Part shown: in pieces, positions 26,253 through 30,820 of the stretch
Position numbering within the stretch: position 1 is the first letter of the stretch
Layout of the letters: every line of letters begins with the position of its first letter
Origin: Vicinamibacterales bacterium
Lineage (GTDB): Bacteria > Acidobacteriota > Vicinamibacteria > Vicinamibacterales > UBA2999
Direction of reading: 5' to 3'
DNA length: 64,000 nucleotides
Assembly: GCA_040081265.1 (NCBI GenBank)
Contig: JBEBGV010000011.1
Location: 11,330 to 75,329, forward strand
Position numbers and translations under genes: made by a program
Notes under the pieces: generated by a model
Databases searched by the model: none
Told to the model about the DNA's origin: nothing
What the model saw: the letters and a program-made list of their open reading frames with translations, nothing else

Positions 26253-26382
26253 GAAGAGGGAAGTGCGAAGTGAGAAGTTCGAAGTGTGAAGTGGGAACGT
26301 GCGAAGTGGAGGTGGGAAGCAGGTTGGAAGTGACTTCACACTTCTCACTTCTCACTTCTCACTTCACACTTCTCACTTCACA
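26253..26382. repeat. heptamer tandem-repeat hairpin element (GAAGTNN units on the left arm, TTCNCAC units on the right arm), locus 1
   Basis: Read directly. Left arm: gaagtgc gaagtga gaagttc gaagtgt gaagtgg ... Centre: ggaagt g acttc. Right arm: ttcacac ttctcac ttctcac ttctcac ttcacac ttctcac ttcac. The stop codon (tca, 26378-26380) of the efflux gene lies in the last unit. Confidence 0.85.
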
Positions 26383-29300: not shown

Positions 29301-30820
29301 CAGCGCTCGAAGATGCGTCCCATGCGCGTCCGCGTGCGCTCCTCTGGCGGAATGTAGCGCACGAACCGGGATGACAGCATCGGATCGAGGGTGAACGCCA
29401 CGAGCAGCGACATCGACACCGCGAAGGCAATCGTCAACGCGAACGACTTGAAGAACTGTCCGACCAGCCCGGTCATGAAGCCGACTGGCAGGAAGACAGC
29501 GAGGATGGTGAAGGTCGTCGCCATGACCGCCAGGCCGATCTCGGAGGTGCCCTTCTCGGCGGCAGCCATCGGGTCGAGGCCCTGCTCCATGTGGCGGTAG
29601 ATGTTCTCGCGCACAACCACCGCGTCGTCGATCAGGATGCCGATGACGAGCGACAGCGCCATCAGGGTCATCATGTTGAAGGTGAACCCCGCCACCCACA
29701 TGAAGAAGAACGTGGCGACAATGGAGGTGGGCAGGGCGATGGCGCTGATCAGGGTGGAGCGCCAGTCGCGCATGAACAGGAAGATCACGAGCACGGCCAT
29801 GATGCCGCCAAACAGAATGTGCTCGCGGACCTGGTCAACGTTCTGCTGGATGTAGTCGGAGTCGTCGTGGACCAGACGGATCTGCAACTGGGAAAACGAG
29901 GGGCCGACGCGCGTGAGCGTCTCGCGAACCTGGGCGGCGATCGCCGCGGTGTTGGCGCCTGACTGCTTGCGAATCGAGAAGGAGACCGCGTCGGCTCCGT
30001 CGAGCCGAGTCGTTGAGGCCCGTTCTTCGAAGCCGTCAACGACCCTCGCGATGTCGCTGACCCGCACGGTGGAGCCGCCACTGGAGCGCAGGATGACGTT
30101 CCCGATCTCCTCGACGGTTGCGAACTCGCCCTTGGTGCGGAGCGAGACGGTCTGCCCCTGGCGAATCATCTGGCCGCCTGGCAGGTCGAGGTTGTCGGCG
30201 GCGAGCGCATCGGCGACAACGCCGATCGGGATGCCGAGGGCTTCGAGGCGCCCCGGATCGATGTCGATCTGAATCTCACGCACGTCACCACCGTTGACCT
30301 CGACCGCTGCCACCCCATCGATCTGCTCGAGGAGCGGCTTCAGGTCCTGTTCGACCTGGCGACGTGTGACGTCGGAGCGCTGGCTGGCGCCCACCGCGTA
30401 GGTCATGATCGGCAGCGCGGCGACGTCGAAGCGGACAATGGTCGGGTCTTCGATTTCGCGCGGCAGCCGGTCACGGATCGCCGCCACCTTCTCGCGCACC
30501 TCGGCGGTCGCGTTCTGCTCGTCCACCTCGAGCCGCAGTTCGACGCCGACGCGTGCGAATGAATCGCTTGATCGCGACTCGACCCGCTTGACGCCGTTGA
30601 TGCCTGCGACGGCATCTTCGATCGGCTTGGTGACCAGGGTCTCAACCTCTTCCGGCGATGCCCCCGGATAAACAACCGTGATGTTGACGAAGGGGAAGCT
30701 GATGTCGGGGAAGAGGTCGATGCCGAGGCGCGTCATCGACACCACGCCGAGCACCATGAAACTCATGATGATCATCGTGGCGAAGACCGGCCGGCGAATC
30801 GAGATGTTCGAAATCCACAT
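26378..30820 (-). CDS. RND efflux permease (AcrB/HAE1-like, residues ~1-1020) fused in frame to a TolC-like outer-membrane factor (residues ~1034-1480)
   Basis: 1480-codon uninterrupted ORF. N-terminus MWISNISIRRPVFATMIIMSFMVLG..., typical RND periplasmic loops and 12 TM segments. C-terminus has two OMF repeats (LTIERAVELALSRNQSLK..., LKVNEEGVQIA..., TELNDARLSLLQTEWELTQAKY). Confidence 0.85.
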   Translation of the reverse strand: MWISNISIRRPVFATMIIMSFMVLGVVSMTRLGIDLFPDISFPFVNITVVYPGASPEEVETLVTKPIEDAVAGINGVKRVESRSSDSFARVGVELRLEVDEQNATAEVREKVAAIRDRLPREIEDPTIVRFDVAALPIMTYAVGASQRSDVTRRQVEQDLKPLLEQIDGVAAVEVNGGDVREIQIDIDPGRLEALGIPIGVVADALAADNLDLPGGQMIRQGQTVSLRTKGEFATVEEIGNVILRSSGGSTVRVSDIARVVDGFEERASTTRLDGADAVSFSIRKQSGANTAAIAAQVRETLTRVGPSFSQLQIRLVHDDSDYIQQNVDQVREHILFGGIMAVLVIFLFMRDWRSTLISAIALPTSIVATFFFMWVAGFTFNMMTLMALSLVIGILIDDAVVVRENIYRHMEQGLDPMAAAEKGTSEIGLAVMATTFTILAVFLPVGFMTGLVGQFFKSFALTIAFAVSMSLLVAFTLDPMLSSRFVRYIPPEERTRTRMGRIFERWGRAYDALDARYHSVLSWALGNPWKTLAAATLVFFASLSTLSVIGTEFVPVEDQGEFQVIADMPPGTSFDESVNAVARIEAEVRALPEVRQIFSTVGVNGQVRSSILRVRTTKSWERERGIGAIKADIRERLAKMPFLSAKIADPEFMQGTPYQPPITIFVRGDDMVTLQRLSAEIERKVRAIPGTTDVDSDLEAGQPEVIAKVNRPLAADLGFSVASVATQLRGMVEGVVPTKLRDGDEEYDIRVRLAPEYRNDNAAVLRTPLYSASGAVVRAGDIAQFGPAVGPSNIDREQRRRQAKIGVDLADGYALGDVTAKVQAVMDGVQMPSNFEWGFAGDVEMMQESAAALVLALILAVAFIYIVLASQFESFIEPFIIMLSLPLAIVGALLLLLLTGKNLGMPAMIGVVMLMGLVTKNAILLVDYTNQLRREGLGVLDALLKAGPVRLRPIVMTTLAMILGMLPSAMGTGEGSAFRSPISIATIGGLITSTLLTLVVVPVSYLLLERLLERLRAFRAAPLSPAWRTTARVTTVLLILAVLGAFATAARAFAGQAPAGPAAVTLGQPLTIERAVELALSRNQSLKVDEQRVSESQASVMEARSAFLPSLNVNFQYTPSQASPLLKIPAGAFGPTAQTFRANFVRENVVRLDLQQPLYTGGRLQHQFGAQAASQEATRLDLERSKQTLTLRVYEVFYGALMNEQGIKVNEEGVQIATRHLELARVRFDAGSAARLDVLRAEVELANARARLIRSRSAAAVSYQALRLVMALPENEPLSLSGTLDQDPQLPAMPTLRTAIDARPDLKAVAQQRTAAQHAVSIAAAGLKPTVAFAGNLQYQEDGLSSLLVGDNRSYQFGLSVSVPLFNGPRVSAQRAVASARVRQAEFGAAAALDGARLELATASTEFDSAREIVATQEKAVELAREGLTIAEVSYENGVITATELNDARLSLLQTEWELTQAKYSEIVAAARTRHAAGL
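27721..27738 (-). promoter_or_regulatory. internal Shine-Dalgarno (GGAGGA) plus in-frame GTG at the permease/OMF junction: possible independent start for the OMF
   Basis: Minus strand reads TGGAGGACCACGGCACGG GTG ACA ACA GTG CTC CTG ATC. GGAGGA = 27733-27738. GTG = 27719-27721, in frame (30820-27721 = 3099). Confidence 0.3.

Follow-up and report, generated by a model that had tools for sequence, protein, structure and literature searches.

Pump and channel are separate polypeptides in the textbook efflux systems of Gram-negative bacteria. The tripartite systems belonging to the resistance-nodulation-division (RND) type, such as AcrAB-TolC, MdtABC-TolC and MexAB-OprM, combine a periplasmic adaptor of the TIGR01730 family, a 12-helix permease of the HAE1 type and a channel with the TolC/OprM fold, and the same three components, sharing one operon with a TetR-family regulator as in these canonical systems, occur in the locus described here. 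It lies within a 64,000-nucleotide stretch (hereafter the window, meaning the whole stretch) of the genome of a Vicinamibacterales bacterium of the Acidobacteriota (assembly GCA_040081265.1, contig JBEBGV010000011.1, positions 11,330 to 75,329). Unlike in the canonical systems, its permease and its channel, or outer-membrane factor (OMF), form one translation product, connected by what looks like an internal signal peptide, and the pump would carry a thirteenth helix after processing. The fused open reading frame (ORF; 26378..30820 on the minus strand) starts with ATG and runs through 1480 codons with no internal stop in its translation, which confirms the single uninterrupted frame proposed in a first-pass annotation of this DNA.

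The closest known precedent may be FbcH of Bradyrhizobium japonicum, reportedly a polyprotein of cytochrome b and cytochrome c1 that is split post-translationally at an internal signal sequence. The first product of FbcH is reported to be a polytopic protein of the inner membrane with a cytoplasmic C-terminus, to which the partner's signal peptide is joined within one chain, and the window has this layout as well, with an RND module of an even number of helices, a basic loop and a hydrophobic segment, all in frame. The protein families are unrelated, and both FbcH products are said to stay in the inner membrane whereas the OMF of the window must reach the outer membrane; moreover, cleavage was reportedly demonstrated for FbcH, while for the fusion in the window it is predicted. 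Within the RND superfamily itself, SecDF is presented in PMC8277102 as a natural single-chain fusion of products that are separate in other bacteria. SecD and SecF differ from the case at hand in being halves of one inner-membrane machine, which stay fused and have neither an internal signal peptide nor a cleavage. No description of an RND-OMF fusion was found in a search of 8.3 million full texts, nor in PMC8277102 and PMC7726332, though one may exist elsewhere, and none is mentioned in the portion covered of a 2021 Chem Rev review of tripartite pumps.

Two modules in one reading frame

That the frame holds a complete AcrB/HAE1-type permease followed by a complete TolC-type OMF had been read from the letters alone, and profile searches bear this out. 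Pfam ACR_tran (PF00873) covers residues 3-1009 (profile positions 1-1020 of 1021; E 2e-261; 870 bits against a cut-off of 28), Pfam OEP (PF02321) matches in two stretches that extend as far as residue 1477 (E 2e-57; 194.5 bits, with a cut-off of 22), and NCBIfam TIGR01844 (TolC family) spans residues 1070-1479 but, at 167 bits, stays under its cut-off of 225. The hydropathy profile shows the 12 helices canonical for RND proteins, the two large periplasmic loops of the RND module (near 31-330 and 552-850) and a single additional hydrophobic segment, 1034-1055, with no further hydrophobic segment beyond it, the OMF part included. The D398-D399 pair in the fourth transmembrane helix (TM4), K921 in TM10 and an RLRPI motif in TM11, which by comparison with AcrB are the proton-relay residues, are present in the translation. 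By sequence, the closest solved structure to the RND part is MdtB (E 3e-138). The module is an RND permease, yet it falls outside the named NCBIfam subfamilies by NCBI thresholds (NF033617, 820.7 against 1250; NF000282, 589 against 1250; TIGR00915, 538 against 940), and with these sub-cut-off scores any assignment to a substrate class or close family would be tentative.

For the OMF part, phmmer against the PDB returns OprM (E 1e-10), OprJ, CusC and TolC. An AlphaFold model of residues 985-1480 (monomer, 12-sequence alignment, mean pLDDT, the model's per-residue confidence, of 67) shows in order a helix that covers TM12 and its tail, a helix for the thirteenth segment, a disordered stretch (the linker, with a pLDDT below 50) and a complete OMF topology of four strands plus long helical hairpins. 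In this topology some 35 residues make up the first OMF helix, which continues without a break into barrel strand one. Foldseek comparison of this model with the PDB gives OprM, OprJ, SilC, CusC, OprN, VceC, CmeC and TolC, all with probability 1.0; that TM-scores reach no more than about 0.3 is explained by the model being a single protomer with the mean pLDDT given above. There is no lipobox cysteine after the predicted cleavage site (AFA is followed by GQAPAGP), which sets the OMF apart from the lipoprotein type of NodT and OprM, and in this respect it is TolC-like.

Conservation of the fusion

All of the best 120 clusters taken from a search of 5.8 billion proteins are full-length fusions (1427-1515 aa, 69-90% identity, 98-100% query coverage) with both Pfam domains, drawn from assemblies that ENA, JGI, NCBI and Logan produced independently of one another. 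We also used the last 496 residues as the query against GTDB genomes, each species being represented once, which yielded about 30 loci in Acidobacteriota, mostly Vicinamibacterales, at 54-76% identity. The first-pass annotation had asked whether a stop codon lies between the two modules in orthologous loci. Of the 27 species-level loci that cover the junction, 23 read through it without a stop, and the four with a broken frame are all metagenome-assembled genomes (MAGs) of a single project, MFD, which we take to be a long-read project. Two of the four were inspected: in L018, which at first looked like a split locus, a frameshift falls inside the linker after AFA and the OMF frame has neither a start codon nor a signal peptide, pointing to an indel error or a pseudogene, and in L028 the RND part itself is broken. 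Both look like indel errors rather than biology. Four other loci of the same project are intact. No genuine split variant is apparent among the 27 loci. Six apparent stand-alone OMF or RND relatives also proved to be truncated or frameshifted gene calls, one of them beginning at the mature OMF N-terminus without a signal peptide.

In an alignment of 121 fused proteins, to which the counts out of 121 below refer, pairwise identity is highest in the RND module (0.83) and the OMF module (0.76), and falls to 0.68 in the hydrophobic segment, 0.56 in the basic loop and 0.41 in the linker.

More distant fusions have the same organisation. An exhaustive HMMER search over 1.84 billion cluster representatives returned 17 further fused representatives (1394-1585 aa, 24-35% identity), whose junctions run through TM12, a basic loop, a short hydrophobic segment and an AxA-like site into the OMF. 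A profile made from them led to another large family of fusions. Its 120 best matches are without exception 1460-1577 aa long, and its junctions have the same layout. The source names of this family are those of Vicinamibacterales, Gemmatimonadaceae, Acidobacteriia, Deltaproteobacteria/Desulfobacteria, Verrucomicrobiota and Alphaproteobacteria MAGs, labels that may be unreliable for MAGs, and the family includes one isolate, Geomonas sp. Red276. On this comparative evidence the fusion is real, conserved, widespread and under selection.

The junction as a probable internal signal peptide

We consider it likely that the gene encodes a membrane polyprotein that is cut by signal peptidase after A1055. 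The junction given in the first-pass annotation (...VPVSYLLLERLLERLRAFRAAPLSPAWRTTARVTTVLLILAVLGAFATAARAFA/GQAPAGP...) matches the sequence letter for letter, and its parts are conserved. TM12 (ending ...VVPVxYLLLE) is followed by a loop of about 22 residues with on average 4.4 positive and 0.6 negative charges, and then by a hydrophobic core (Kyte-Doolittle mean, 2.2). Around the predicted cleavage site, all 121 proteins have A, V or T at position -3, and 118 have F or W at -2. The residue at -1 is A in 116 of them (G in four, P in one), and that at +1 belongs in all 121 to the set Q, G, A, S, E, D and N, mostly to its first four. Conservation falls away sharply right after the AxA motif. Between there and the conserved start of the OMF (LTIDRALELA..RNE.LK) lies a linker with many A, P, Q, G and S residues, whose length ranges from 2 to 48 (median 14); it measures 2-5 residues in 23 of the 121 homologs and 15 in the window. 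By these comparisons, the junction has the succession of n-, h- and c-regions, and obeys the -3/-1 rule, of a substrate of signal peptidase I. It is unusual in its position: the signal-peptide-like segment is internal (1011-1055 of 1480), with neither a stop nor a conserved start before it, and is not the N-terminal peptide of a separate precursor.

Topology is consistent with such a role. RND proteins have their N-terminus in the cytoplasm, and the even number of 12 helices therefore leaves the C-terminus of the RND module in the cytoplasm as well. With the basic loop held inside by the positive-inside rule, the thirteenth segment would thus span the membrane from inside to outside and expose the AxA motif at the periplasmic face, so that the earlier argument that a single extra helix places the OMF in the periplasm holds.

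The following series of events can be envisaged. The 12-helix RND protein would be inserted co-translationally with its C-terminus in the cytoplasm; the basic loop 1011-1033 would stay inside, while segment 1034-1052 would cross from inside to outside and drive Sec export of the OMF moiety. Signal peptidase I would then cut the chain, which has a computed mass of 160.4 kDa when uncleaved, after A-F-A(1055). The mature OMF (about 45.7 kDa, N-terminus GQAPAGP...) would be released to periplasmic chaperones, the beta-barrel assembly machinery (BAM) and trimerisation in the outer membrane, like other OMFs, and the pump (about 114.7 kDa) would retain the former signal peptide as a C-terminal thirteenth helix. 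Together with a lipoprotein-type adaptor, pump and OMF would make up a tripartite RND efflux system of the ordinary kind, controlled by a TetR repressor, the novelty presumably residing in biogenesis rather than in function. Such a fusion would give strictly 1:1 synthesis of pump and channel.

Several observations weigh against this reading. The residue at position -4 in the window is Arg. The thirteenth helix, at 0.68 identity, is more conserved than is usual for signal peptides and contains a nearly invariant G (in LxGAF), which could reflect a role beyond export or a stable anchor. Some members of the family, about half of which retain a Met at position 1024, could also initiate internally, and the scores for RND_permease_2 and TIGR01844 lie below the curated cut-offs.

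Three explanations had been offered for the fusion at the outset: a fusion released by signal peptidase, dual products from read-through and internal initiation, and a lost stop codon or an assembly error. The first is favoured by the comparisons, through the n-h-c layout and the -3/-1 rule kept in the 121 homologs next to a linker of such variable length, and through the recurrence of this layout in fused families at 24-35% identity; the other two have fared less well.

Alternative sources of the outer-membrane factor

An unlikely alternative is that translation also, or exclusively, initiates within the gene to make an OMF precursor, either at GTG codon 1034, which in the window does have GGAGGA 11 nt before it as first described, or at Met 1024 in relatives; the continuity of the frame would then be of no consequence. 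Position 1024 is Met in 52 of the 121 homologs and Leu in 46; a Shine-Dalgarno-like motif (GAGG or GGAGG) precedes it in three of the eight Met-bearing loci, and initiation there would yield a textbook signal peptide (MPAGLRTAARV…AFA). In the window, however, position 1024 is Leu (CTG, 27751-27749), and initiation at 1034 would leave a signal peptide whose n-region lacks charge. Of 21 loci, only some half have GTG as codon 1034, and the Shine-Dalgarno-like motif before it occurs in the window and in none of the 20 related loci; by chance, such motifs precede 3 of the 114 in-frame start-capable codons of the fused ORF. Furthermore, 60 of the 121 homologs have no Met in residues 1011-1035, so that in these the fusion is the only plausible source of the OMF, and the lack of a genuine split variant among the 27 species-level loci also speaks against a separate product. 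As a conserved mechanism, dual products by way of GGAGGA and GTG are thus not supported. Internal initiation is not conserved, though some members may make use of it, and is an unlikely source of the OMF in the window; GGAGGA and GTG 1034 are probably fortuitous, and position 1024 is probably the vestigial start codon of a once-separate OMF gene.

It is considerably less probable still that the protein remains permanently fused and uncleaved, with the thirteenth segment as a stable anchor that holds the OMF covalently to the pump. The hydrophobic segment is fairly long and fairly conserved, and the arrangement is topologically feasible. Against this, the linker is short, and the first OMF helix in the AlphaFold model leads directly into a barrel strand. 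Since that helix enters the first barrel strand, residue 1071 should lie near the outer membrane; in the AcrAB-TolC and OprM structures, the corresponding point of the OMF is more than 100 Å from the inner membrane. A tether of 2-15 residues to the inner membrane is therefore geometrically implausible. In addition, the strictly conserved AxA stands exactly where conservation drops, a pattern that fits a cleavage site and not an anchor.

An artefact or a decaying gene, in which a sequencing or assembly error or a recent pseudogene-like read-through has removed the stop, has a negligible chance of being the explanation: it has no more in its favour than the rarity of the architecture in textbook systems, and it is refuted by conservation across hundreds of independent assemblies and one isolate genome (at least 120 clusters at 69-90% identity, at least 120 of the second family and 17 other distant representatives), with both modules under constraint.

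Origin and spread

The nearest unfused relatives of the OMF are about 30% identical to it and mostly found in Verrucomicrobiota, where the OMF is encoded by a separate gene directly downstream of the RND gene. Nine such Verrucomicrobiota/Opitutales pairs resemble the window in gene order, in the distance from the end of TM12 to the OMF N-terminus (150-240 nt) and in having OMF precursors with a signal peptide and a short linker. They differ from it in that an acidic RND tail is followed by a stop, a spacer of 10-30 nt and the OMF's own ATG, from which the signal peptide, the short linker and the same conserved OMF N-terminus are read. This arrangement is presumed to be the ancestral state; once a neighbouring RND-OMF pair had lost the stop of its RND gene together with the short spacer, the fusion would probably have resulted.

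Many unfused RND proteins, with 46-48% identity over the C-terminal half, are nearer to the RND half of the window than are the corresponding parts of the other fused families. This is a hint that genes have fused more than once and independently, and multiple origins would in turn suggest a selective advantage of cis-coupled synthesis. The fusion might then do more than economise on gene order: a channel made as the tail of a polytopic protein targeted by the signal recognition particle (SRP) would have to be exported co-translationally and close to the pump, and the thirteenth helix might itself be functional, for example as an AcrZ-like modulator or a determinant of RND-trimer assembly. We regard this wider proposal as speculative and rather doubtful.

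If processing occurs as predicted, a widespread polyprotein split by signal peptidase into an inner- and an outer-membrane protein would be a rare case of bacterial biogenesis. It would surprise those who study efflux pumps and the biogenesis of outer-membrane proteins, while leaving the working of the assembled pump as it is understood. The fusions would also represent a natural experiment on how an outer-membrane protein fares when SRP/Sec deliver it co-translationally and when it is made strictly 1:1 with its partner, whether it merely copes with this or gains from it, and their layout could serve as a template for stoichiometric co-expression of efflux components. The fused proteins are currently annotated as 'efflux RND transporter permease subunit', and as a result of this permease-only annotation genome surveys undercount outer-membrane factors in Acidobacteriota and other lineages bearing the fusion.

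Operon and neighbourhood

The features of the operon and of the junction are collected in Table 1, together with two peptides that would distinguish the uncleaved from the cleaved form. The adaptor gene ends 15 nt before the RND start, and the adjacency of adaptor and permease is kept in related loci. Its start is likely the ATG at 31996 (Met94 of a longer ORF, 30836-32275), which is preceded by GAGG, and the resulting N-terminus (MFGPTTARSLALIALTFSVPAMSAC) resembles a lipoprotein signal. In every related locus with enough upstream sequence, tetR lies directly upstream of the adaptor gene and the cassette of regulator, adaptor and fusion is kept, with downstream genes that are not conserved. 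A weak sigma-70-like site is found at 32872-32844 on the minus strand, the number of such sites being within chance expectation, and a promoter and terminator scan inside the fused gene gave nothing above chance.

Table 1. Coordinates of the pump operon and of the parts of the fused gene, with two diagnostic peptides
Feature	Coordinates	Strand	Basis or remark
TetR-family repressor, first gene of the cassette	32053..32763	-	Pfam TetR_N (E 9e-18), TetR_C_33
Periplasmic adaptor (membrane fusion protein, MFP) gene	30836..31996	-	TIGR01730 RND_mfp, 224.9 bits against a cut-off of 94.9; Pfam HlyD_D23, HlyD_3
RND (HAE1-type) permease module, residues 1-1010	27791..30820	-	ACR_tran, hydropathy, MdtB match
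Basic cytoplasmic loop, putative n-region of the internal signal peptide, residues 1011-1033, RLLERLRAFRAAPLSPAWRTTAR	27722..27790	-	
GGAGGA	27733..27738	-	11 nt before in-frame GTG 27721-27719 (codon 1034)
13th hydrophobic helix, putative h- and c-regions, residues 1034-1055, VTTVLLILAVLGAFATAARAFA	27656..27721	-	Hydropathy peak; helix in AlphaFold model
Variable linker, residues 1056-1070, GQAPAGPAAVTLGQP	27611..27655	-	Predicted disordered N-terminus of mature OMF
TolC-type OMF module, residues 1071-1480	26381..27610	-	OEP, TIGR01844, PDB matches; stop codon 26378-26380
Junction-spanning tryptic peptide of the uncleaved form, AFAGQAPAGPAAVTLGQPLTIER			
Semi-tryptic peptide predicted for the cleaved form, GQAPAGPAAVTLGQPLTIER			

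Directly downstream of the pump operon (23252-25965, minus strand), the window encodes a LiaF-like membrane protein, a LytS-type histidine kinase and a LytTR response regulator, a neighbourhood that is not conserved in related loci. No tRNA genes or Rfam matches were found in the 64,000 nt. Four ORFs on the minus strand (25975-26355, 32875-33474, 16585-18264 and 41828-43291; 126, 199, 559 and 487 aa, respectively) have no Pfam match, and some of them may be spurious.

BamA, Lnt and an LpxA-type enzyme are also encoded in the window, which indicates a diderm envelope with BAM, the machinery for inserting a released OMF. The BamA homolog (48832-51627, plus strand; Omp85 with POTRA repeats) has 931 aa and is longer than BamA of E. 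coli (about 810 aa).

Two further ORFs on the plus strand combine several domains. One of 735 aa (18176-20383) comprises a MeaB GTPase (52-279), a glyoxalase/epimerase-type domain (317-440) and a metallo-beta-lactamase domain (507-708), and may be a three-way fusion or a mis-joined frame. The other, of 423 aa (52893-54164), joins a FabA/FabZ-like dehydratase (25-141) to an LpxA-type hexapeptide acyltransferase (162-408), and is a second in-frame fusion of genes that are usually adjacent yet separate.

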